A stretch of DNA of 64,000 nucleotides from Pseudomonadota bacterium (GCA_005777805.1 SXLG01000013.1:976-64975); one strand, 5' to 3'. Shown: positions 7,626 through 48,805, numbered from the stretch's first letter. Notes: generated from the sequence alone by a model not told the origin. Made by a program: numbers and translations.

Positions 7626-7903
7626 ATGGGGCCGACAGCGCCGAACGGGCGGGGCCGCGCCGCGCCGACGCCAAAAGACTACTCCCCGGTGGCGTTCATC
7701 GCTGGGCCCGCTGCGGCGTGCCGACATGGCCGGCGGTTGCGCGGGCGCACGTTTCTCGGTCGACATCGCCGACGTCCGGACCGGCTCCGGGGTGCGCCGG
7801 GCCGGCCCGCTCGCGCCCCGCCTTGATCCGCGTTCCGAAACCGGTAACACTAATTCCGAATCGCCGTTCGGCTTTTCGAGGCGTGCTTTCGGGAGGGCAG
7901 ACC

Positions 7904-9073
7904 ATGGCAGAAACGACATTGATTTCGGCCGATTCCCACGTCGTGGAGTCGCCCGATTTGTGGACCAAATGGCTCGGTCGCGAGTTTCACGACCGCGCCC
8001 CGAAACTCGTCAAGGATAAGGAGGGCGGCGACGCCTGGCAGTACCGCCCCGGCACCCCGGCCGTACCGCTCGGGCTGGTGACGACCTATCCGGGACGTAC
8101 CTACGAAGCCTTCCGCTGGGAGGGGGCGCGCTACGACAAGGTCAACGCGGGGGCGTGGAACGGCGAGGCGCGGCTCAAGGAACAGGACATTGACGGAGTG
8201 CAGGCCGAGGTGCTCTATCCGTCGCAGCGCACCATGCGTCATTTTATGCTGGACGACGACGACGAGTTCCATCTCGCCGGCATCCAGGCGTACAACAACT
8301 GGATGGCAGGCGAGTTCTCGGCGGCGGATCCCGGGCGCTTGATCGGCTTGGCGCAGCTACCGAACCTCGGCGTCGAGGCGGCCATCGCCGAGATGCGGCG
8401 CTGCAAGGCGCTCGGCCTGCGTGGCGTGATCCTCTCCTCCTGGCCGGCGGGCGGCGAGGCGATCTCGAAGGTCGACGAGGCCTTCTGGAAGGTGGCGTGC
8501 GAGCTCGACATGCCGTGCAGCATCCACCTCGGCACCGTCTCGAAGAAGCAGGCGGGGAAGGCACAGGCCACGGCGACGGGTCAGGTCGCGGGCGAGCCCG
8601 AGGGGCTGCTCACCTCGGGCCAGAAGACGGTCGCGACCTACTCGACTGCCGGCGTGATCGACATGCCGCCGATCATCACACAGACGATCTTCTCCGGACT
8701 CTTCGATCGCTTCCCGACGCTCAAGTTCATCTCGGTCGAGTCGGGCTGCGGCTGGGTGCCCTACCTGCTCGAACAGATGGATGACCGCTGGTGGCGCAAC
8801 CGCCATTGGGCCAAGGTCGAGCTGCAGAAGCTTCCCAGCGAGTACTGGAAGTCAAACTGGTACCTGACGTTCGTGCAGGACTTCTACGGCGTGAAGAACC
8901 GCAACGCCGTCGGCATCGACAACATGATGTGGTCGACCGACTACCCGCATCACATCTGCGACTGGCCCTACTCGCGCAAGATCGCCAACGAGATGTTCCT
9001 CGGCGTGCCCGCCGATGAGCGCCAGCGCATCTGTGCCGGCAACGCGATCCGCCTCTACGGTCTCGACGTCTGA
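7904..9073 (+). CDS. Amidohydrolase-2 family metal-dependent hydrolase (ACMSD/LigY-like)
   Basis: ATG preceded by GGGAGGG. ISADSHVVESPDLW metal-binding start and C-terminal DYPHH..DWP are typical of PF04909. The longer track ORF from 7718 has no RBS and a low-complexity N-terminus. Confidence 0.7.
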   Translation: MAETTLISADSHVVESPDLWTKWLGREFHDRAPKLVKDKEGGDAWQYRPGTPAVPLGLVTTYPGRTYEAFRWEGARYDKVNAGAWNGEARLKEQDIDGVQAEVLYPSQRTMRHFMLDDDDEFHLAGIQAYNNWMAGEFSAADPGRLIGLAQLPNLGVEAAIAEMRRCKALGLRGVILSSWPAGGEAISKVDEAFWKVACELDMPCSIHLGTVSKKQAGKAQATATGQVAGEPEGLLTSGQKTVATYSTAGVIDMPPIITQTIFSGLFDRFPTLKFISVESGCGWVPYLLEQMDDRWWRNRHWAKVELQKLPSEYWKSNWYLTFVQDFYGVKNRNAVGIDNMMWSTDYPHHICDWPYSRKIANEMFLGVPADERQRICAGNAIRLYGLDV

Positions 9074-9133: not shown

Positions 9134-10696
9134 ATGGGCGCGAGCGGGAACGGCCAGGGGTTGGCCCCCTTGACGCTCAGCGTGGTGATGCCCGTCTACA
9201 ACGAGCGCGCCACGATTCGTGACATCCTTTGTCGCGTCGCCCGCCGCACCGAGGTCGACGAGCTGATCATCGTCGACGATTGTTCGAGTGACGGCACTTC
9301 CGACGTGCTGGCGACCGAGGCCGCAGACGGTTGGCCCTGTCTTGGCGGGCTTCGCCCGGGCGGGCCGCCGCGCGTGCTCTTGCTGCGTCACGAGGTGAAC
9401 CAGGGCAAGGGCGCAGCACTGCGTACGGGCTTTGCTGCCGTCACCGGCGACATCGTGCTCACGCAGGACGCCGACCTCGAATATGACCCGGCGGACTACC
9501 CGAAGCTGCTGGCGCCGATCCTCGATGGCCGCGCTGACGCCGTCTACGGCAGCCGGTTTGCCGGCTATCCGCGCCGCGTGCTGATGTTCTGGCACACGGT
9601 GGGGAACAAGCTTCTCACGACCCTCTCCAACATCCTCTGTAATTTGAACCTGACCGATATGGAAACCGGTTACAAGGCGATGCGGCGCGAGATGGTTCAG
9701 GCGATGGTGCTGCGTTCCAACCGTTTCGGCATCGAGCCGGAGATCACCGCCCGGCTCGCCCGGCTCCAGGCCCGGATCTACGAGGTGCCGATTTCCTACG
9801 CCGGCCGCTCCTACGTCGAGGGCAAGAAGATCGGCTGGAAGGATGCCATCTCGGCGGTCTGGACCATGCTGCGTTGCGCGCTGATCGACGACCGCGAGAC
9901 CGTCGATCCCCTGCACGCCACGCTGCGCCGCATGGCCGTGCTCGATCGCTACAACGCTTTCCTCTTCGAGCAGATCGCGCCCTTCGTCGGCCAGCGCGTG
10001 CTCGAGGTGGGGGCGGGCACGGGCACGTTGACCCGCTTCCTGCGCTCCCGTGATCGGGTACGGGCGACCGACGTCGATGCGCAGTACGTCCATCTCCTCG
10101 AGCGCCGCTTCGAGCACGATGGCAACGTCGCGGTATCCGCCTACGATCTGGCCGGCGAGCCCTCCGCGGACGTCGCCACGCAGCGCTACGACACGATCGT
10201 CTGTCTGAACGTTCTCGAGCATATTGCCGACGATGAGCGCGCGCTGCTGCGGCTGCACGACTTGCTCGAGCCGGCCGGTCAGCTCATCCTGCTCGTCCCG
10301 GCGCACCAGGCCCTCTTTGGCACCATGGACGAGGCGATCGGGCACTTCCGGCGCTACGAGCGAGCGTCGTTGCTGCGTCAGCTCCGCGAGGCGGGCTACC
10401 ATGTGCAGGCGAACTTTTTCGTCAACGCCACCTCGGTGGTGGGCTGGTGGCTCAACGGGCGTGTGCTGGGCCGCCGTGGCGTCCCGGGCGTGCAAGCCCG
10501 GCTGGCGAACCGCCTGGTGCCGCTCTTCCGCATCGAGCGCAAGCTGCGCTTGCCTTTCGGGATCTCGCTGGTTGCCGTGGCGCGGCGGCCCGCGGATGTC
10601 CTGGCTGCGGCTGCTTCGGGCGAGACGGCTGCGGCGGTGGCAGAGGCCGCAACCCCGGTGGACGCGACGGGTGTGGCCTCGCGCGGCCCGGGCTGA
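9134..10696 (+). CDS. Fusion protein: N-terminal GT2 polyprenyl-phosphate sugar synthase (DPM synthase-like), C-terminal class I SAM methyltransferase
   Basis: N-term LSVVMPVYNERATIRDIL..IIVDDCSSDGT..QDADLEYDP (DPM1/GtrB-like). C-term VLEVGAGTGTLTRFL ... CLNVLEHIADDERALLRLHDLLEPAGQLILLVPAH (MTase motifs I-III). Confidence 0.75.
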   Translation: MGASGNGQGLAPLTLSVVMPVYNERATIRDILCRVARRTEVDELIIVDDCSSDGTSDVLATEAADGWPCLGGLRPGGPPRVLLLRHEVNQGKGAALRTGFAAVTGDIVLTQDADLEYDPADYPKLLAPILDGRADAVYGSRFAGYPRRVLMFWHTVGNKLLTTLSNILCNLNLTDMETGYKAMRREMVQAMVLRSNRFGIEPEITARLARLQARIYEVPISYAGRSYVEGKKIGWKDAISAVWTMLRCALIDDRETVDPLHATLRRMAVLDRYNAFLFEQIAPFVGQRVLEVGAGTGTLTRFLRSRDRVRATDVDAQYVHLLERRFEHDGNVAVSAYDLAGEPSADVATQRYDTIVCLNVLEHIADDERALLRLHDLLEPAGQLILLVPAHQALFGTMDEAIGHFRRYERASLLRQLREAGYHVQANFFVNATSVVGWWLNGRVLGRRGVPGVQARLANRLVPLFRIERKLRLPFGISLVAVARRPADVLAAAASGETAAAVAEAATPVDATGVASRGPG

Positions 10697-10995
10697 TTTC
10701 CGCTTGATCTCGCCCGCCCGTGTGGCCGCGCCAGCGACAAGAGCCCGGCTTCGCCACGCGATACTGCGGCCTCTGACGGCGGCGATGGCGCCTCGGACCT
10801 GGACCAGCGACCGCTCAGGGGTGGCCGGAATCATCGTCTTGTCATGCTGTGCCGAGACGCTGGGTGGGCGCGGGCCAATGACAGCGCGAGGGGCGGCCGC
10901 GAGGTCCTGGGGCTTGCCGGGATCGGACCCTCGATGAGCAGGCATCATGACCCGCACCGGCGTGCCTCTCAGGCCAGCGGGGCGGAGGCCGGAGT

Positions 10996-11209
10996 GGACG
11001 AGCGATGATCCGGGTCGTCCTGGTGACGGCGGCGACGCTGGCGGGGACGTCGTGGGTGGCGATCTCGGTGGTCGAGGCCGATCGGCTCGCGGTCGCGCCG
11101 GCGGACGAGCGATGATCCGGGTCTTCCTGGCGACGGCGGCGGCGCTGGCCGGGACGTCGTGGGTGGCGATCACGCTGGTCGAGGCCAATCGGTTCGCGGT
11201 TGCGCCGGC
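10996..11209 (+). repeat. Two tandem copies of a 107 bp unit (about 90 % identical) spanning the start of the downstream membrane-protein gene
   Basis: Direct reading. Copy 1 is about 10996-11102 and copy 2 about 11103-11209. Both contain ATGATCCGGGTC..TGGGTGGCGATC..GTCGAGGCC..CGG(C/T)TCGCGGT(C/T)GCGCCGGC. Confidence 0.7.
11005..11115 (+). CDS. Possible 36-codon upstream ORF (MIRVVLVTAATLAGTSWVAISVVEADRLAVAPADER) that copies the N-terminus of the downstream membrane protein
   Basis: Created by the tandem duplication. GGAGG lies 15 nt upstream of its ATG. Its TGA overlaps the ATG of the main gene (ATGA). No separate homology evidence; it could be a duplication scar. Confidence 0.3.
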   Translation: MIRVVLVTAATLAGTSWVAISVVEADRLAVAPADER

Positions 11210-13175
11210 ACTTGCCGCGGGTGCGCTGACCGCGCTGTTCGCGGGCGCATGGGGCTCACGCCTGCATCTGCCGCGGGGCGGACTTTTGCTGGTCGGGGCG
11301 CTCGGCGGTGCGCTCTCGATGTTGCCGCCGATCGACACGACGCTTCTCTCGCAGGATGCGAGTCTGCACCGCGGCGCCGGCCTCTGGCTGGCACGCGAGG
11401 GCACCCTCGCGGTGGCCGACCCGGCCCTGGCGGCCCTGAATGCCGACGAGCGAGTGGCGCTCTTCGGCGGCGGCACGATCAGCGCGCGCCGCATGTCGCT
11501 TGTCCGACTGCCGGGTGGACTCGTGCTGCCCGATCTGGATACCGAGGTGGCCTACCCGAGCTTCTCGCATCTGCTCATGACCTGGGTCGGGCTAGCGGCG
11601 CGGGTCGCCGGCGCCGGTGCGGTTGGCTTCCTCGGCCCCCTGCTGGCCGCCCTCGCGCTCTGGGCCGTCGGCGTGACGGTGGCACTTGGCGTGGGCGGCC
11701 GGTCAGGTGCCGGGTGGGGGCTCGCGGCGGAGATCCTGCTCGCTCTGCTCCTGCCCGAGCACTGGTTCGGGCGCTTCCTGATGAGCGAGATCCTCGGGCA
11801 GGCGCTGGTGTGGTGTGCCGTTGCCGCCGCAGCGATCGCGGCCGAAGAGGCGCGCCGTCCGCTCGGCCGGCGCGCGGCGCGGGGAGTCGCGGGACTTCTG
11901 TGCGGCGCCTGTCTCGGGCTTGCGGGTTTCGCGCGCCTCGAGATGGTGTGGATCTTCGTGCCGGCTCTGCTGCTGGCGCGTGCCTTGCTGCCGGCCGGCC
12001 GCCGTCTGCTGCCGCCGCTCGCTCTCGCTGTTTTTCTCTTCGCCGCCGGACAGGCGGCGTTGCATCTCACGGCGATTCCAACCGACTACGGCAATCATAT
12101 TGTCCGACAATTGCTCGAGGCTTACGCGCGCCTGGTCTGGCTCGTCATCGCGCTCTGCCGTGGCGACGGCCATCTGGCGGGAACCCTCCTGCGGCTGGTC
12201 CTCCCGCTGGTAGCCTTCGGACTCCTTGCCGCCGGGTTCGTTTGGGTGCGTGCGGTCGAGCGTCGGCGGCCGGGGCAGGGCATCCGTGCAGCTTGTGCGC
12301 TTGCGGGGGGGCTGTGGCTGGCGCTTCTCTACCGCAAGGGAGTGACCCCCGGTTGGCCAGCGGCACGTGCGCTGGTGCTCTTCGTGCCGCCCGCACTGCT
12401 CGGAGCGCTGGCGCTGGCTGGCCGCAGGGCGTTGCCGCGGGGTGGGCTCGAAATCGCTCTCTGCCTGTTGGCGCTCGACCAGATCGCGGGCGGTCGCGTC
12501 GCCGACGAGCAGATCTGGGCGGCGCGCCGGCTCGTCCCGGTGGTGCTGCCCCTGGTGGTGGTGCTGGCCGTGCGCGGGGTCGGTGGATCCTGGCTTGATG
12601 GAAGGCGACCCCGCTCTGCCTGGCGGCTTGGGCTGGCGCGGGGCCTGCTGGTGGTGGCGCTGTTCGCTGCTGTGCGCATGGTGTGGCCCGTGCTGGGACG
12701 GCAATTGCAGGGCGGGGCCGCGGACCGCGTGCGCGAACTCGCCGCCGAGTTGCCGCCGGACGCTCTGGTCCTGCTGGCCCAACCGCTCGACTGGACGCAT
12801 CTTGCGGCCGCACTCTGGCTCGGCGAAGGCCGGCGCACGCTCGTGCTGCGCCAAGCCGGCGTCGCGGGCCACGGCGCGGCACTCCGGCGCTATCTCGATA
12901 CCGCGCCCGCGGCCGGGGTGTGGGTCGTGACCGGAGCGGCGGGCAGCGCGGCGGCCCCCGCGAGCGGCGACGAGGGCCTCTCTGGGTTCGAGGGATTGAC
13001 ACTCTCGGCGCCGTCGGCAGTCCGGCGCTGGCGCGCGGACTTTCTCGAGGTCACCCGCGGCCGGCGGCCACACGGACTGGTCGAGCGCGAAATCGCACTC
13101 CGCCTGCGCCGCGTCGGCCCGCCGCCGGCGCTACAGCCCCAGGGCGCGAGCACCGGGCGCCTTGGCCGCGACTGA
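11112..13175 (+). CDS. Polytopic integral membrane protein (possible GT-C-like glycosyltransferase), about 687 aa
   Basis: ATG at 11112, in frame with the long track ORF whose upstream part is non-coding. More than 12 hydrophobic helices, with a C-terminal soluble region. No confident motif assignment. Confidence 0.5.
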   Translation: MIRVFLATAAALAGTSWVAITLVEANRFAVAPALAAGALTALFAGAWGSRLHLPRGGLLLVGALGGALSMLPPIDTTLLSQDASLHRGAGLWLAREGTLAVADPALAALNADERVALFGGGTISARRMSLVRLPGGLVLPDLDTEVAYPSFSHLLMTWVGLAARVAGAGAVGFLGPLLAALALWAVGVTVALGVGGRSGAGWGLAAEILLALLLPEHWFGRFLMSEILGQALVWCAVAAAAIAAEEARRPLGRRAARGVAGLLCGACLGLAGFARLEMVWIFVPALLLARALLPAGRRLLPPLALAVFLFAAGQAALHLTAIPTDYGNHIVRQLLEAYARLVWLVIALCRGDGHLAGTLLRLVLPLVAFGLLAAGFVWVRAVERRRPGQGIRAACALAGGLWLALLYRKGVTPGWPAARALVLFVPPALLGALALAGRRALPRGGLEIALCLLALDQIAGGRVADEQIWAARRLVPVVLPLVVVLAVRGVGGSWLDGRRPRSAWRLGLARGLLVVALFAAVRMVWPVLGRQLQGGAADRVRELAAELPPDALVLLAQPLDWTHLAAALWLGEGRRTLVLRQAGVAGHGAALRRYLDTAPAAGVWVVTGAAGSAAAPASGDEGLSGFEGLTLSAPSAVRRWRADFLEVTRGRRPHGLVEREIALRLRRVGPPPALQPQGASTGRLGRD

Positions 13176-13280: not shown

Positions 13281-14996
13281 CTATCCCCAGAGTTCGTTGC
13301 GCAGCACGCGTCCTGGGCGCGCGGCGGTGGGTGTGCCGTGGCGCATCAATATCTGGCCATTGACGAGGGTGGCGTCGTAGCCGCGGCCGGTTTGAGTCAG
13401 GTGGGGCGCGCCTCCGGGCATCTCGTGCCGTAGTTCGGGCAGGCCGATGTCGATACGGTCCAGGTCGATCACGTTGAGGTCGGCGTGGGCACCGTGGCGG
13501 ATCACGCCGCGGTCGCGCAGACCCCAGAGGCTCGCCGGATCGAAGGTGAGCTTGCGGATCGCCTGCTCGATCGTGAGGAGGCGGCGCTGGCGGACCCACC
13601 AGGAGAGCAGGAAGGTCGAGTAGCTCGCGTCCGAGGTCTGGGTGGTGTGGGCGCCCGAGTCGCCGAGGCCGATGCCGGTGAGAGGGTGCGACAGCATCGC
13701 CCCGACCGCGTCGAGGTCGGGATTGAAGAGTGGCACGATGAAGAAACCGCGCAGGTCGGTGCGGAGGATGTGCTCGAGGATGAGTTCGCCAAAGTTGCGC
13801 CCTTCGCGGCGCGCCCGCGCGCCGATGCTTTGCTCGGGCGTGAGTTCGTACGCCGCGGCACCTTCGCCCTCGAGAGCGAAAACCTGATCGACCGTCGCCA
13901 TGCCGCCGAGCACGGCGCCGTTCTCGTTGCGTACGCTCTCGAGCAGGCGCTGGCGGAGGTCGGCGTCGCGCAATGCCGCGCGGATCTCGTCCACGGGCCT
14001 CGAGGCCAGCTCACCCGCCGCGGGGAAGATCCAGAGCGGCGAGACCGAGATGCCGAAACCCATGAGCAGCCCGACGCTGCGCACCGCTACCTGGGGCACG
14101 ATCCGTGCGCCACGAAGCTGGGCCTCCTCGGTGGCGCGCAAAGCGTCGCGCCATGCATCCGGATAGGCCAGGCACTGAACCAGGCCGACGCTGAGCGGCC
14201 GAGCGGACTCGAGGCTGATCGGCAGCATCCACTCGTACTCGCGGCGCCAACCCTCGGCATCCTCGCCGGCACCACCGAGCGGGATGATCTCCAGCACACC
14301 CGTGCCCGTCGCGGCGAGGCCGCTGGCGAGAGCGTCGAGTTCGCGCCGGTCGGCGAAGGTGCCGGGGACGGGATCGCCCGAGGGCGTGCGGTGCATGGTG
14401 GTGCGTCCGGTGGAGACGCCGAGCGCCCCGGCGCGCATCGCCTCGACGACCGCCGTGCGCATGGCCACGAGTTCGTCGTCGTTGGCGGGTGCCGCCGTGG
14501 CGCCACGCTGGCCCATGGCGTGGATGCGCAGCGGAGCATGGCTCAGGTGCGCGCCGACGTTGAGGCCGAGGGGGCGCGCATCGAGGGAGTCGAGGTATTC
14601 GGGAAAACTCTGCCAGTTCCAGCCGATGCCGGCCGCCATCGCGCTGACCGGGATGTCCTCGACCCCCTGCATGAGGAACATCAGGTAGTCGCGATCTTCC
14701 GGCCGGCAGGGGGCGAAACCCACCCCGCAGTTGCCGACCACGACCGAGGTCACGCCATGCTGATTTGACGGCGAGCCGAGTGGATCCCAGATGAGCTGCG
14801 CGTCGAGATGGGTGTGGATGTCGACGAAACCTGGCGTGACGATGCGGTCGCGGGCGTCGATCTCCTCGCGGGCCGGGCCGTCGCAGCGTCCGATGCGTGT
14901 GATCCGCCCGCCCTCGATCGCGATGTCGGCCCGGTAGGCGGGACCTCCCGTGCCATCGACGATCGTACCGCCCCGAATCACCACATCTGCTGCCAT
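13281..14996 (-). CDS. D-aminoacylase / N-acyl-D-amino-acid deacylase family amidohydrolase
   Basis: Start MAADVVIRGGTIVDGTGG, preceded by GGGAGG. Contains DARDRIVTPGFVDIHTHLD (metal-binding HxH). About 571 aa. The upstream part of the 796 aa track ORF is low-complexity and non-coding. Confidence 0.75.
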   Translation of the reverse strand: MAADVVIRGGTIVDGTGGPAYRADIAIEGGRITRIGRCDGPAREEIDARDRIVTPGFVDIHTHLDAQLIWDPLGSPSNQHGVTSVVVGNCGVGFAPCRPEDRDYLMFLMQGVEDIPVSAMAAGIGWNWQSFPEYLDSLDARPLGLNVGAHLSHAPLRIHAMGQRGATAAPANDDELVAMRTAVVEAMRAGALGVSTGRTTMHRTPSGDPVPGTFADRRELDALASGLAATGTGVLEIIPLGGAGEDAEGWRREYEWMLPISLESARPLSVGLVQCLAYPDAWRDALRATEEAQLRGARIVPQVAVRSVGLLMGFGISVSPLWIFPAAGELASRPVDEIRAALRDADLRQRLLESVRNENGAVLGGMATVDQVFALEGEGAAAYELTPEQSIGARARREGRNFGELILEHILRTDLRGFFIVPLFNPDLDAVGAMLSHPLTGIGLGDSGAHTTQTSDASYSTFLLSWWVRQRRLLTIEQAIRKLTFDPASLWGLRDRGVIRHGAHADLNVIDLDRIDIGLPELRHEMPGGAPHLTQTGRGYDATLVNGQILMRHGTPTAARPGRVLRNELWG

Positions 14997-15255
14997 CGCG
15001 CTGTCCTCCCGGGTCCCTGCTTGGCCACCTCTCCCCGGACGGAGGTGGCCGCCGTCCCTGCTAGCTAAGCGAGGCCCCCGAGGCGAAGGGTCGGTGCCCC
15101 GCACGATCACCGCCCCGGTGCGGGTCCGCCGAGGTCGTCCCATTCCTCGGGACGAGGCACAGGTCGGCAGTTGACGGGGCCCGCAGCGGCGGCGAGAACA
15201 ACCGTGGCGGAGACGTCTCCGCCGACGCGATCTCAACGCTTGCCTGGAGTCCCGG

Positions 15256-17067
15256 ATGCCCCGTCTCGCGGTTCTTGCCTGCTTCGTCTTTGCCGCCATG
15301 GCTCTGGCGGGCCGAGCCGTGGCGTCGGAGTGCGGCGGCACGGTGGCGTGCGCTTGCGGCGATACCGTGGTGCGGGCGACGCTTCTCGAGGCGGATCTCC
15401 TGGACTGCACGCAGACCGGGCTCGTCGTCGGGCCGGGCGTGACGCTCGATTGCCGGGGGCACGCGATCCGCGGCCGCAGTTCGCGCGACGGCCTCCTGCT
15501 CGCCGAAGCCGAGGGGGCGCGGGTGCGGGGCTGCACGGTCGAGGGCTTCCGCATCGGCATCCGCGTGCGTGGTGGGCATGGGCAACTCGTCTCCGAGAAT
15601 CTGCTCGTGGGCAACCGGCGCGGTCTCGCGGCGACCGATGGCGCCAGCGATGTCCGCTTCGAGCGCAACACCGTCGAGGCCAGCGCCGAAATTGGTCTCT
15701 ACGTCGGCAACGGCACGGCCGATGTCTCGGCCGTGCGCAATGTGATCATGGATGCGGCCAAGGAGAATGTGGAGGTGGTCGAGAGCGCCCGCTTCCTCCT
15801 CGACGATAACGTCCTCGGCGGCGTCACGCGCTACGGGCTCCGGCTCACGGATTCGCCGAGTGCTCGCGTCCGCGGCAACGAGATCCAGAGCGGGCACATT
15901 CAGGTGCGCGGCAATTCGGATGGCGGGACTTTTCTCGACGATCTGGTGCTGGGGCGCGAGGGTTACGACTTTCGGGGCATCGAGGACCGCGACGGGAGCT
16001 GGCGATTTCCCGACCACAACGTGATTCGCGGCGGGGCGATCCCCAATGCGTCACGTTGCTTCCGTTTCTCTGGTGCGTCCTTCAATGAAATCGACAGCGT
16101 CGCCCTGGGTTCTTGCGCGACTCGCCCGGTCGAACTCAAGACGGTCGATGGTCAGGCCGCGGTCGGCAATACGATCGACGGCAACGCGACCGCGGGAGGT
16201 TCCGGTGGATCCGTCGCGGGCGTTTGCGGCGGTGACCGCCCCTGTACCTGTGGGGATACGCTGACGGCCTCGGCCGTACTCAGCGGCGACCTCGTCGGTT
16301 GTACCCGCACGGGTTTGCGGCTGGCCTCCGGTGTCACCTTGGACTGCGCGGGCTTTGCCATCCTCGGCCGCAGCTCGAGCGATGGCGTGTTGATCGACCA
16401 CGCCGACGGCGCGCGTGTCCGCAACTGTCGGATCGAGGGCTTTGCCGCGGGCCTGCGCGTGCGCGGCGGGGCCCGCCAGCAGCTTCAGGACCTGCTGGTG
16501 CGCGCCAACGAAGTCGGCATCCGCGTTGAGGAGGGGTCCGCCGGAACGCGGATCGAGCGTGCGGTGGTGGAGCAAAGTCGCGACAGCGGCATCCGGGCGG
16601 CCGCGGTCTCGGAGGTCGCGATTCTCGGCAGTTCTGTCTCTGGGTCGGGCAAGCAAAATATTGAGTTGGTGGGGGTCGATCGCGCCCTGGTGCAGGGCAA
16701 CGTGCTCGACGAGCGACCCCGCTGCGCACTGCGTCTCAGCGACACCACGCGCACCGAGGTGCGGGCGAACGAGATCCGGAGCGCCGGCATCGAACTGCGC
16801 GGCGCGAGCAACTCGAACCTCTTCGCGGACAACCGACTCCTCGATCTTGGATTCAGCCTGGCCGGCATCGAGGATCGAGAGGCCGGCTGGCGCTTTCCCG
16901 ATGGGAACACCTTCCGCGGCGGCGTGATTCCCACGGCCACGCATTGCTTCATCTTCGCGGGCGCCACCGACAATCTGGTCGAGGACGTCGACTTCGGCGC
17001 TTGCGCCGCAAACCCGGTCGAGCTCGACACGGTCGACGGCCACGCCGCCACGGGCAATCGCTGGTAG
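15256..17067 (+). CDS. Secreted right-handed parallel beta-helix repeat protein (NosD/pectin-lyase-fold-like) made of two tandem homologous halves
   Basis: Signal peptide MPRLAVLACFVFAAMALAGRAVA. Residues about 25-300 and 315-600 are homologous. The first half starts CGGTVACACGDTVVRATLLEADLLDCTQTGLVVGPGVTLDCRGHAIRGRSSRDGLLL, the second CGGDRPCTCGDTLTASAVLSGDLVGCTRTGLRLASGVTLDCAGFAILGRSSSDGVLI. Repeated ..NxIxxN.. beta-helix rungs. Confidence 0.65.
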   Translation: MPRLAVLACFVFAAMALAGRAVASECGGTVACACGDTVVRATLLEADLLDCTQTGLVVGPGVTLDCRGHAIRGRSSRDGLLLAEAEGARVRGCTVEGFRIGIRVRGGHGQLVSENLLVGNRRGLAATDGASDVRFERNTVEASAEIGLYVGNGTADVSAVRNVIMDAAKENVEVVESARFLLDDNVLGGVTRYGLRLTDSPSARVRGNEIQSGHIQVRGNSDGGTFLDDLVLGREGYDFRGIEDRDGSWRFPDHNVIRGGAIPNASRCFRFSGASFNEIDSVALGSCATRPVELKTVDGQAAVGNTIDGNATAGGSGGSVAGVCGGDRPCTCGDTLTASAVLSGDLVGCTRTGLRLASGVTLDCAGFAILGRSSSDGVLIDHADGARVRNCRIEGFAAGLRVRGGARQQLQDLLVRANEVGIRVEEGSAGTRIERAVVEQSRDSGIRAAAVSEVAILGSSVSGSGKQNIELVGVDRALVQGNVLDERPRCALRLSDTTRTEVRANEIRSAGIELRGASNSNLFADNRLLDLGFSLAGIEDREAGWRFPDGNTFRGGVIPTATHCFIFAGATDNLVEDVDFGACAANPVELDTVDGHAATGNRW

Positions 17068-45973: not shown

Positions 45974-48805
45974 CTATCGGGCCCGTGCCGAAGGGAGATC
46001 CAAAGTAGACTCTGCCGTGCCAGGGATCGGCTCGGGAAGCGCGCGGGCGGTACCGGGCACGGAGCTTTCCTCTGGCCCGCGCGTCGAGACGCTGGGTTCA
46101 CCATCGAGCGTCACGCCGGCCCCCGCGAGCATGACGCTCGGGTGCGCCGCCTCGACCAGCGCCACCAGATAGACGCCCGCGTTGAGTGGCGGGGCAAGCG
46201 CGCGAACCACGACCTGTTCATCTCCGGCTTCGAACTCTGGCGGGTCGAGGAGGGAGACTGTGCCCGCGAGCTCGCCCCTGCGGGTGATCCAGTGCAGCTC
46301 GAGCTGTCCCGGCATTCGGCCTAATTTTTTATTTCCGGCCGGAGTCGGCAGCAGCGGCAACGCGGCGCCCGAGCGTGGTAGAGGCGGGGCGCCGCGCGGC
46401 AAGATCTCGTCGGCGATGAAGGTCGCGTCGAGCAACACCAGCGTGCCGGTGGGGCCGAAGGCCTTCTCGTAGGGAAGGATGTCGACGAAGGCGCGTCCCA
46501 GGGGGCGGTCGCCGTCGCGCGTCAATAGATCGACGTCATGCGGTCCGTCGGCGAACGGTACGCGGGCGTCGAGCCACGTGCGCAGCCGGCCACCGGGCGC
46601 CACCGCGAGCGGCAGCAGGGCGTGGGTCTCCTCGGCGAGGACGATGCGGCCGCCGGGGGTACGCCACACGAGCCGTACCGCCTGGGGCGCGAGAGGCGTG
46701 CGCCGGGCCTCTGCCGCAGTGTCGGGCTCCCCGTGTGGCCCGGCCCCAGCGGAAAGAGACTCGACGTGCGTGTCGGGGGTTTTGTCGACGGTGTCGCGTC
46801 CGTCGGCGGGCTCGATTCCCGCGACGGGCGGTGTGGCGCGAGCGGCCAGCGCCGGGTGCACGAAGACCCGGGGCCGGCCGCTCTCCAGGTCTGTCGTGAA
46901 TTCGATGGGAATACGGCGCGGGTTGCCGGGAAGTAGACGCTTGCGCCCGGTGCTGCCGGGAGTGCGTGGCGCCGCGAGCGTCGCGATGTCGGAGGTGCGT
47001 GCGGGCGCCGGGCCGAGTGTCCAGGTTTCGACTCGTGCGGTCTGACCGAGTGGAGCGAGGCCGCCCGCCTGAACTGCCGCATCTGACCAGCGCGCGCCGA
47101 GGTCTGTGCCCGGGCTCGCCCCGGCGAGATCGCGCCGCAGCGCGACCGAGCGGAAACCGAGCGCACGGAGTGCTTGCGCGGCGGGTGCCGAGGGGAGTTC
47201 GCTCGCCAGCGTCTCGACTTGCTCGATCAGGGGCGAACTGAAGGAGTTGTAGCAACCGGCGAGCGGGTTCCGGGCCCACGCCGAGAGCAGCAGGTGCTCG
47301 GCCACGTCAAGTCGCTGGGCGCGGGGCTCGTGGACCGGAAGCGGCAGATCGACCACCGGACCCTCGGGTAATGCGCGCCACAGGGCGATCTCGTCGTCGG
47401 GCGGGCGAGCGTCCCAGGCGCGCAGGCGCAGCGTGCGGCCCCAGATCGGCCGGCCGAGCGTGCTCGAGAGGGCGAACGCCAGCAGGGCCAGTGCCGTGCC
47501 GATGGCGACCAGGCGGCGCGCTCGTCCGTGAAAAAATTCGAGCAGAACGAGAGTGCCGAATCCGGCCAGCGCGGCCAGCGCGAGATCAAAGCCCTGCCGC
47601 AGGTTCGCCAGGCCGCGCACGGCCGCGAGTCCCGGCACCAAGTGGGCGAGCGCCACCAGCGGCGAGGGCAGAGCCCATGCCGTGCCGGGGATCACGAGCG
47701 TGCGCATGGCACACCACAGGCAGAGCAGGCCGCCGGCGAACCAGGCAAGGCGCGGGTCGTCGCCGCCGCCCCAGGTGTGCGCGGCGTCGCCGTGCGCGCC
47801 GGTGCCAGCGCCGCACGTGCCTGTGTCATCGCCCGGGCGGCCTTCACCGCCGCAGGTGCGCCGGCCGCGAAGACGGTCGGCGAGGGCGACGAAGGCGAGC
47901 GTCAAGACGATGGGTCCGGGGAACCCTTCCGCGCCGGGCTGCAGGGTTGCCGGATCGAGCAGGATCGAGGCTCGTCGGCTCAGAATCGGCCACGTCGCGC
48001 CGGTCTCCAGGTAGGGCCCGTAGAGCCAGCCGGCTGCGGCGGCGACGGGGAGTCCCGCCAGCGCGAGCAGACCGAACGTGGTGGCGAGGCCGCGGCGGCG
48101 TCGGGGCAGGAGGAAGAGTGCGTACACGCCACCGAGCAGCAGGGTGGCCAGCACGGGGTAGAGACTCTCGCCCAGGGTCAACACAGAGACCGTGGCGAGC
48201 CCGAGAGCGTCGCGCAGCCGCGCTCGCACCACGCTGCGGTGCAGGAAGAGCAGGACGAGCGGTGCCCACAGGTCGCCGTGCACGAAGGGGTGGCTCGGGT
48301 CGGCCAGCCGGTCGGGCACGAGGAGGAAGGCCAGGGCCGCGACCAGCGCCGCCCCCAGCGATCCGGTGAAATGGATCGAGAGCGCCAGCATCGCCAGGCC
48401 GGCGATCCACAAGGCCGCCACGAAGGCCGTGTTGAAGGCGAGGATCGGCTCGGCGCCGAGGGCCCACGCGGGCGCGGCGAGCAGGCCGAATCCGAGCATA
48501 TGCTCGCCGAGCGTCCAGGCGCGCGGCATCGGAAAGCACGGGCCGTCCTCGTCGCGCACCGAAAATGGATCTTCCACGAGGAGACGCGCATTGCGCGCCA
48601 CCGTCGCGACGACCATCTGCTGGTCGAAGTGGTCGAGCCGGTCGAGGCCGGGCACGGCGTGCTCGGCCAGTCGCGCTGGCCAGGGCAAGAGCCGCAACGG
48701 ATCGGGCAGCACCTCGCGCACCACGAGCAGGGCCGCGGCCAGCAACACGAGCGCGGCCGCGGCCCAGCGCCACACCTGCGTGCCGCGAGCCGGGCGAGCG
48801 TTCAC
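45974..48805 (-). CDS. Very large (943 aa) polytopic membrane protein, putative GT-C-like glycosyltransferase, with a beta-rich C-terminal extracytoplasmic domain
   Basis: GTG start overlaps the stop of the upstream methyltransferase (GTGA). At least 12 TM helices over the first about 500 aa. C-terminal about 400 aa hydrophilic. Confidence 0.5.
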   Translation of the reverse strand: MNARPARGTQVWRWAAAALVLLAAALLVVREVLPDPLRLLPWPARLAEHAVPGLDRLDHFDQQMVVATVARNARLLVEDPFSVRDEDGPCFPMPRAWTLGEHMLGFGLLAAPAWALGAEPILAFNTAFVAALWIAGLAMLALSIHFTGSLGAALVAALAFLLVPDRLADPSHPFVHGDLWAPLVLLFLHRSVVRARLRDALGLATVSVLTLGESLYPVLATLLLGGVYALFLLPRRRRGLATTFGLLALAGLPVAAAAGWLYGPYLETGATWPILSRRASILLDPATLQPGAEGFPGPIVLTLAFVALADRLRGRRTCGGEGRPGDDTGTCGAGTGAHGDAAHTWGGGDDPRLAWFAGGLLCLWCAMRTLVIPGTAWALPSPLVALAHLVPGLAAVRGLANLRQGFDLALAALAGFGTLVLLEFFHGRARRLVAIGTALALLAFALSSTLGRPIWGRTLRLRAWDARPPDDEIALWRALPEGPVVDLPLPVHEPRAQRLDVAEHLLLSAWARNPLAGCYNSFSSPLIEQVETLASELPSAPAAQALRALGFRSVALRRDLAGASPGTDLGARWSDAAVQAGGLAPLGQTARVETWTLGPAPARTSDIATLAAPRTPGSTGRKRLLPGNPRRIPIEFTTDLESGRPRVFVHPALAARATPPVAGIEPADGRDTVDKTPDTHVESLSAGAGPHGEPDTAAEARRTPLAPQAVRLVWRTPGGRIVLAEETHALLPLAVAPGGRLRTWLDARVPFADGPHDVDLLTRDGDRPLGRAFVDILPYEKAFGPTGTLVLLDATFIADEILPRGAPPLPRSGAALPLLPTPAGNKKLGRMPGQLELHWITRRGELAGTVSLLDPPEFEAGDEQVVVRALAPPLNAGVYLVALVEAAHPSVMLAGAGVTLDGEPSVSTRGPEESSVPGTARALPEPIPGTAESTLDLPSARAR

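Follow-up and report, generated by a model that had tools for sequence, protein, structure and literature searches.

Tandem duplications are generally lost quickly. Regulatory leader or arrest peptides, of which SecM-secA, MifM-yidC2 and VemP-secDF2 are examples, are encoded upstream of membrane-biogenesis genes. In gene pairs that overlap by the four nucleotides ATGA, the overlap has been found experimentally to couple translation of the two genes in E. coli and Haloferax (PMC6728339; reviewed in PMC12548453). In the literature, we found no specific described case of a tandem duplication that spans a start codon and creates a bacterial upstream open reading frame (uORF). The locus analysed here lies at the start of a gene for a large membrane protein, in a window (the whole stretch of DNA that was analysed, 64 kb in length) with a G+C content of ~70%. 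Its features are:

9134 to 10696, plus strand: gene for a fusion of a GT2 domain similar to polyprenyl-phosphate glycosyltransferases with a class I methyltransferase, as judged by Pfam PF00535 and methyltransferase domains
10984 to 10994, plus strand: Shine-Dalgarno (SD)-like GGAGGCCGGAG 5′ of copy 1, outside the duplicated unit; it includes a GGAG (10991-10994) at a distance of 10 nt from the ATG (11005)
10996 to 11102, plus strand: copy 1, a probable decaying relic, with 9 nt of native 5′ leader and gene codons 1-32.7 (from TRF and pairwise comparison)
Copy 1/copy 2 boundary: duplication junction, where GCGCCGGC is followed by GGACGAGCGATG
11005 to 11115, plus strand: uORF of 36 codons from copy 1, consisting of a copy of TM helix 1 and then a tail that comes from the 9-nt leader of copy 2, read out of frame (ending in ADER and the stop)
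11103 to 11209, plus strand: copy 2, the putative functional 5′ end of the GT-C gene, which keeps the family-conserved F5, S16, W17, E24 and F28
11112 to 11115, plus strand: ATGA stop/start overlap of the uORF and the main ORF, with the TGA at 11113-11115 on the ATG at 11112-11114
11112 to 13175, plus strand: gene for a 687-aa multi-pass membrane protein with a predicted GT-C-fold glycosyltransferase structure (AlphaFold2 model and Foldseek; no Pfam or NCBIfam family)

Within the 64-kb window, TRF reports positions 10996-11209 as a tandem array with a period of 107, 2.0 copies, 91% matches, 0% indels and a score of 365, and this array is the sole sizeable tandem repeat. A base-by-base comparison of the copies gives 98 identical positions out of 107, with 9 mismatches and no indels, and pairwise comparison shows that the similarity breaks off sharply at both ends, without any extension into the flanks. 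The two copies are adjacent and head-to-tail, have no spacer, and resemble each other far more than expected by chance, which are the properties of a tandem duplication. A first-pass annotation of this DNA had proposed two tandem copies of 107 bp and ~90% identity at this position, and this description holds, in perfect register. (TRF reports one other tandem repeat in the window, at 48718-48764, with a period of 24 bp, 2.0 copies and 86% matches.)

The duplicated unit measures 107 nt, or 3x35+2. It begins with 9 nt of leader (GGACGAGCG), which are followed by the 98 nt at the 5′ end of the gene, encoding TM helix 1. Because the unit length is of the form 3n+2 and the native start has the CGATGATC context (CG-ATGA-TC), the uORF and its ATGA overlap are an arithmetic by-product of the duplication: the frame of copy 1 runs into the next unit as …GCG GAC GAG CGA TGA. 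The same ATGA also occurs at the start of copy 1 itself (11005-11008), where it ends a meaningless upstream ORF, and it is thus part of the duplicated unit. Since the unit includes the start codon, the downstream copy is an intact gene from 11112. ORF analysis agrees with the earlier observation that the ATG of copy 1 at 11005 opens a 36-codon ORF, and that the TGA of this ORF and the ATG (11112) of the 687-aa ORF overlap. The encoded peptide is MIRVVLVTAATLAGTSWVAISVVEADRLAVAPADER, and the uORF and main ORF have the co-directional 4-nt ATGA overlap that is the structural hallmark of a coupled pair. The high GC3 of the uORF, its hydrophobicity and its ATGA overlap are inherited by-products, rather than separately evolved features.

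We take 11112 to be the true start, and rejected a 742-aa ORF from the ATG at 10947, because the 5′ extension reads copy 1 out of frame, has a low GC3 (0.54, while the gene has 0.82 and the uORF frame 0.94) and has no counterpart in the family. A -1 frameshift that would fuse the uORF to the main ORF was rejected by reasoning alone, as the product would gain a further TM helix and have an inverted GT-C topology. There is also a 24-codon ATG…TGA ORF (10934-11008) that ends on the ATGA of the native start, so that the window shows a chain of three ATGA-linked ORFs (this ORF, the uORF and the main ORF). Such an ORF is also present in L009, a relative with 87% identity (positions 2055-2132); it measures 75 nt in the window and L009 alike, with a GC3 of only 0.75 and no conservation of the peptide. 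Its position on the ATGA is probably due to chance in DNA with 70% G+C, where stops occur at ~1.9% per codon.

The 687-aa protein has no Pfam match at E≤0.01 and no NCBIfam match at E≤0.1, and the curated GT-C families (PMT, PMT_2 and STT3) are unmatched. All 26 of its full-length homologues, with P0001 as the cluster representative, are unnamed or hypothetical. So far, they come only from metagenomic records and MAGs, and those with an organism name belong to ‘Candidatus Binatia’ or ‘Deltaproteobacteria’ MAGs. An AlphaFold2 model of the protein from 23 family members (pLDDT 87, pTM 0.90) was compared to the PDB with Foldseek, and the best 11 matches are all GT-C enzymes (DPY19, AglB, ArnT, ALG9 and PglB), with probability 1.00, E-values from 1.8e-5 to 1.7e-2 and TM-scores of 0.31-0.46. 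According to this model, the protein is predicted to be a GT-C-fold glycosyltransferase, in a family without a curated sequence-family match. The family alignment shows a motif that comes after the N-terminal helices, IDTTLLSQDAS, in which D82 is invariant and D75 near-invariant; these two are candidates for the catalytic acidic positions that GT-C enzymes such as ArnT and PglB have in their first extracytoplasmic loop. In TM helix 1, which is encoded by the duplicated segment and corresponds to helix 2-24 of the model, F5, S16, W17 and E24 are near-invariant in the family. The main gene encodes an intact protein of 687 aa that keeps every family-invariant residue, and its changes are mostly at third positions. 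Two relatives have peculiarities of their own. One homologue (P0020, 1022 aa) also has the GST domains PF13410, PF13417 and PF13409. Another GT-C relative, with 44% identity over the best tblastn segment, is located on a 132-kb contig titled ‘MAG: Klebsiella pneumoniae’ (L005, CAMBZJ010000006.1); the DNA is G+C-rich at the gene start, and the Klebsiella label is probably a result of mis-binning or mislabelling.

The GT2 part of the upstream gene has its best NCBIfam similarities to the polyprenyl-phosphate sugar synthases AglJ, ArnC and PpgS, all under cut-off. This order of a GT2 gene followed by a GT-C gene is syntenic in L001, L009 and L010, the relatives with nucleotide-level similarity. 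The spacer ahead of the GT-C start grows stepwise, from 44 nt in L001 to 137 nt in L009 and 308 nt here (10697-11004), to which the 107-nt duplication is added, and in distant loci the GT-C start is only 8-12 nt past an in-frame stop. We considered the extra ~163 nt relative to L009 (about 10728-10890) as a repeat element, and found no other copy of it in the window or the fetched loci. Further downstream are an Amidohydro_3 gene on the minus strand (13281-15671) and a gene for a beta-helix/NosD-domain protein (~15.4-16.2 kb), both of which are conserved with the 87% relative.

The earlier annotation had considered that the repeat could be an assembly artefact, which in this case would mean that the gene starts of two strain haplotypes had been joined in tandem. 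The source is a metagenome in which several strains and one related species occur together in a sample, and this could favour such an error, as could the existence of single-copy contigs (see below). However, the duplication is also found in L011 (ENA ERZ27257034, k141_1866935), a 200-kb metagenomic contig that is 99.9% identical to the window, with 8 differences that include one in copy 1, and in L012 (ENA ERZ27257033), which comes from a different sample and also shows 8 differences from the window, including three in the uORF. The junction occurs in three consensus sequences (the window, L011 and L012), which have SNPs of their own and represent at least two samples, whereas two short contigs are single-copy, and the copies differ from each other at 9 sites. 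Moreover, a de Bruijn assembler, which produced the k141_... contigs, outputs only junction k-mers that are present in the reads. The derived states of copy 1 are found in no single-copy orthologue haplotype except one chimeric contig (L013, discussed below), and haplotype chaining would not give a unit that starts exactly 9 nt 5′ of the ATG in perfect register. Since the junction recurs in several assemblies and de Bruijn contigs cannot hold junction k-mers that are absent from the reads, an artefact is very unlikely, and we reject this explanation.

In both L011 and L012, a public gene caller has called the uORF as a 36-aa gene. An exact look-up of the 36-aa peptide of the window found nothing on record, because the public contigs have a V22L variant. 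With regard to the rest of the contig, L011 is almost identical to the window except at 8437-8479, in an Amidohydro_2 gene (7718-9073), where there are six mismatches in 43 nt; this cluster could reflect either variation between strains or a local error in the consensus.

If the duplication is taken as genuine, the arrangement could be a selected leader-peptide device, in which the hydrophobic uORF is kept and the GT-C gene is translated obligatorily via reinitiation at the ATGA, with the uORF possibly sensing membrane insertion or targeting. The ATGA overlap and the lack of the distal GGAG in copy 2 are both in line with such a device, and ATGA coupling is real in bacteria (PMC6728339). A device of this kind might be expected in relatives, but no orthologue that we examined has the uORF. 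Our comparison covered L009, L010, L001, L002-L005 and L007 (L006 lacks the 5′ end of the gene and was left out). The 87% orthologue (L009/L010) is single-copy; L009 shares its ENA sample with L011, and the gene start in L009 is GGAG-N10-ATGATCCGG, the same context as that of copy 1. L001, the 64% orthologue, likewise has one copy and begins with GTGA, and the loci at about 42-44% (L002-L005 and L007) have no repeat at the gene start. Thus, as far as these sequences indicate, the duplication is lineage-specific and the uORF absent in every orthologue examined, and the pair of uORF and main ORF is not conserved among relatives at 87%, 64% or about 42-44%. The first-pass annotation had itself named single-copy relatives with a conventional ribosome-binding site (RBS) as evidence against its proposal, and the 87% relative, with GGAG-N10-ATG, is of this type. 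A 21-mer common to both copies (GGACGAGCGATGATCCGGGTC) had 0 matches in JGI metagenome contigs.

We used the outgroups L009 and L001 to set the polarity of change at the nine codons that differ between the copies. Both outgroups share F5, A7, GCC13 and F28 with copy 2, and S21 and GTC30 with copy 1. At codon 11, L009 shares A11 (GCG) with copy 2, while L001 has GTG; L009 also shares D26 with copy 1. The ancestral TTG22 is kept by copy 1 in L011 and L012. The derived states of copy 1 are therefore F5V, A11T, GCC13GCG and F28L, which are fixed, and A7V and L22V, which are polymorphic, while those of copy 2 are at codons 21 and 26, with silent changes at 22 and 30. Because the outgroups match copy 2 at some codons and copy 1 at others, both copies have changed after the duplication. 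Third-position change in the lineage of the window since the L009 split amounts to 7.9% (51/643), and lineage-specific change in copy 1 to roughly 4-6% (4 fixed and 2 polymorphic differences in 107 nt), which suggests that the duplication post-dates this split. Relative to the population of at least 99.7% identity (the window, L011, L012 and L013), on the other hand, the sequences suggest that it is old. Thus, when the earlier annotation offered a ‘recent duplication scar’ as an alternative, the word scar was apt, but the outgroups show too much divergence of both copies since the event for it to be very recent.

The changes in copy 1 resemble those expected without selection. Five are non-synonymous and one synonymous, which, at a ratio of non-synonymous to synonymous sites of 2.4, is compatible with neutrality, and changes fall on third positions in 1/6 cases, compared to 51/81 for the remaining part of the gene (Fisher p=0.037). 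Copy 1 has also lost the near-invariant F5, as well as F28. This neutral-like pattern, with loss of family-conserved residues, argues against a selected leader peptide, as does the restriction of the uORF peptide to one lineage, since arrest leaders are expected to show peptide conservation across species. Proponents of such a device could point to the persistence of the duplication through roughly 5% neutral divergence, and to the uORF being intact in three assemblies: its start, frame and stop are kept in 3/3 duplication-bearing assemblies, and the replacements in copy 1 are all hydrophobic or small. However, an open uORF is uninformative here, because the probability of no stop after 6 random substitutions is 0.88. 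We infer that copy 1 evolves like neutral DNA and is a non-functional relic, while copy 2 appears to be under the constraint of the protein family. Given so few substitutions, the uORF may nonetheless encode a weakly selected small membrane peptide.

Polymorphism in copy 1 is somewhat more complex. Between the window and L012, three of the 8 SNPs lie in the 111-nt uORF (11024, 11068 and 11108; p=5e-4), and all three are non-synonymous. The SNP density of copy 1, 2.7%, is higher than that of neutral sites elsewhere, and could reflect gene conversion, inter-copy consensus noise or diversifying selection, beyond drift alone. The T>C SNP at 11024 matches copy 2, and could be a case of gene conversion.

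We next consider translation of the two ORFs. The claim that copy 1 has a good GGAGG RBS does not survive closer inspection, in that 16 nt separate this GGAGG (10984-10988) from the ATG (11005), an excessive distance; the GGAG at 10991-10994, with a distance of 10 nt, is the element that could be used. The companion claim, that the 687-aa gene has no RBS of its own, is partly right: the distal GGAG is lost in copy 2, but the proximal 9 nt (GGACGAGCG) are retained. Predicted anti-SD pairing is -6.2 kcal/mol for copy 1 and -5.0 kcal/mol for copy 2, assuming a canonical 16S 3′ tail, which may not be that of the host. Among random 20-mers of window DNA, the median is -3.2 kcal/mol and 16% are at -6 or lower, so both SDs are weak. 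(We used random 20-mers as the background because long high-GC3 ORFs in the window gave only 13 starts, which are ambiguous and too few.) The predicted RNA fold of the leader (10960-11180) has a minimum free energy no better than that of shuffled sequences (z=0.35), with 125 of 200 shuffles folding at least as well, and within this region we saw no structure that would sequester an SD or mask a start, as would be expected of an arrest leader. SD strengths only 1.2 kcal/mol apart and the lack of sequestering or otherwise unusual RNA structure both speak against a dedicated device. So does the length of the peptide. The ribosomal exit tunnel holds about 30-40 residues, and a chain of 36 residues is thus almost wholly inside it at termination. 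Membrane sensing or SRP targeting of the TM helix during translation is therefore unlikely on general grounds, because the chain would still be in the tunnel. Considering all of these observations, together with the single-copy contigs described below, where the GGAG immediately precedes the gene, we regard a selected leader-peptide device as unlikely.

With regard to transcription, a scan of 10400-11400 found no sigma-70-like promoter, and a terminator scan of the same region found one terminator-like site, which is inside the gene and within chance expectation. These scans lend no support to a separate transcript for the GT-C gene, which is presumably co-transcribed with the GT2 gene.

Two short contigs of near-identical sequence carry a single copy of the unit. 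L013 (NCBI SYFE01000091.1, 5.8 kb) has the complete upstream flank of copy 1. Its codons 5, 7, 11 and 13 match copy 1 and its codons 21-30 match copy 2, and the switch point falls inside a 21-nt stretch that is identical between the copies. Three of the SNPs in L013 are shared with L012, which carries the duplication, and two others are private. L008 (NCBI SXGU01314145.1, 2.2 kb) starts 20 nt 5′ of the ATG with the flank of copy 1 and is like copy 2 from codon 7 on, so that its switch point differs from that of L013. In both contigs, the gene sits directly behind the native GGAG of copy 1. Because an ancestral position of L013 and L008 would need at least 8 exact convergences, given the outgroup polarity, these contigs must derive from the duplicated allele. 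They could be either secondary deletions, by recombination or slippage, or low-coverage assembly collapses. With regard to the quality of L008, T>G and A>C account for 11 of its 13 mismatches to the window, a pattern that resembles error and suggests very low coverage. Because this contig is error-laden, the cluster representative P0001 has spurious substitutions such as W17G.

If the single-copy contigs are real, the duplication could be polymorphic and unstable and act as a one-way switch, with a duplicated allele and deletion derivatives that alter both translation and TM helix 1. The different crossover points and hybrid N-termini of L013 and L008 agree with this idea, as do the three SNPs that L013 shares with L012 in addition to its own two, and the outgroup polarity, which makes the chimeras derivatives of the duplicated allele and not the reverse. 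However, the single-copy forms are known only from short contigs (5.8 and 2.2 kb), the errors in L008 are typical of very low coverage, and low-coverage de Bruijn assembly may drop the interior 107 bp by joining the copies through shared k-mers. Furthermore, deletion of a diverged repeat is irreversible, and would thus represent decay, as opposed to true phase variation. A switch of this kind is therefore improbable in our view. A combination of this idea with the selected device, in which the duplicated allele is maintained for obligatory coupling to the uORF and real deletions of the L013 and L008 type restore direct initiation and swap residues of TM helix 1, strikes us as decidedly improbable. 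If it were true, a diverged tandem repeat across a start codon would provide a stepwise natural polymorphism of both expression and N-terminus.

Taken together, these results favour a genuine lineage-specific duplication of 107 bp in which copy 1 is a decaying relic, that is, a scar and not a selected device, and we assign this reading a probability of roughly 0.78. On this reading, a duplication event would have doubled a segment made up of the final 9 nt of the 5′ leader and the initial 98 nt of the GT-C gene, with TM helix 1, after the split from the 87% relative and long before the present population diversified. Copy 2 would have stayed under family constraint, while copy 1 was left to drift. 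The mRNA would be read from the GT2-methyltransferase gene onward through the GT-C gene. Ribosomes that start at 11005, behind the weak native GGAG, would terminate on the ATGA, a fraction of them would reinitiate at 11112, and weak direct initiation at 11112 on the residual GGACGAGCG would occur alongside. Reinitiation and direct initiation together could keep the GT-C gene expressed enough for purifying selection to act. The chimeras would result from collapse of the repeat, either in the genome, via recombination or slippage in short identical stretches, or in low-coverage assembly.

Judging from the constraint on its sequence, the GT-C gene has evidently stayed expressed and functional behind the relic. 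By analogy with other ATGA overlaps, termination-reinitiation probably contributes to this expression, though we see no sign of selection for it. The proposal in the first-pass annotation that expression may depend on termination-reinitiation is therefore plausible as to the mechanism, given that ATGA overlaps do couple translation. Its mechanism is credible as a consequence of the duplication, because such coupling has been shown in E. coli and Haloferax, whereas the idea of a selected dependence is unsupported, with relatives that are single-copy and a copy 1 that changes neutrally.

The locus is most likely a moderately old, lineage-specific scar that mimics a leader-peptide arrangement, and as such is of low to modest interest. 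It is nonetheless a caution that an RBS, a hydrophobic leader and an ATGA overlap that seem designed can all fall out of one duplication of length 3n+2 that contains a start codon, and a caveat for annotation, in that gene callers report the relic as a 36-aa gene. It would also be a natural example of a uORF born from its own downstream gene, in which duplication, divergence and collapse can be placed in order by means of outgroups. Should the chimeras be real alleles, the locus would document the ongoing decay of an old tandem duplication in a wild Binatia-like population. Finally, the uncurated GT-C-fold family, paired with a GT2-methyltransferase, may interest research on envelope glycosylation.

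Comparison to the described systems reveals both similarities and differences. Like the SecM, MifM and VemP leaders, the uORF is short, has a hydrophobic N-terminal segment and precedes a gene for a membrane protein. However, it has no conserved arrest motif and no SD-sequestering hairpin (z=0.35), it is absent from orthologues, and its peptide is too short to leave the ribosome before termination. With termination-reinitiation pairs (Huber et al. 2019, PMC6728339; Brown & Wade 2025, PMC12548453), the locus shares the ATGA overlap and a weak downstream SD. Yet the members of coupled pairs are usually conserved, bona fide genes, often for subunits of one complex, while the upstream partner here is probably a 36-codon relic of the downstream gene that is not conserved in relatives.

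The encoded protein resembles GT-C enzymes (ArnT, PglB/AglB, DPY19 and ALG9) in its predicted fold, and its gene has an adjacent, co-directional GT2 gene, as in their partnership with polyprenyl-phosphate GT2 enzymes (ArnC, GtrB and AglJ). It differs from those systems in that it has no Pfam or NCBIfam membership and TM-scores of only 0.31-0.46, and in that the GT2 here is fused to a methyltransferase. A further parallel is with small bacterial tandem duplications, which are likewise head-to-tail, without a spacer and in exact register, in which one copy is selected while the other degenerates, and whose apparent collapse products cross over in short identical stretches. Unlike in those duplications, the copies here have survived to 8.4% divergence, which is unusual, and the unit spans the start codon, so that the duplication has created a pseudo-start and a uORF while leaving the gene undisrupted.
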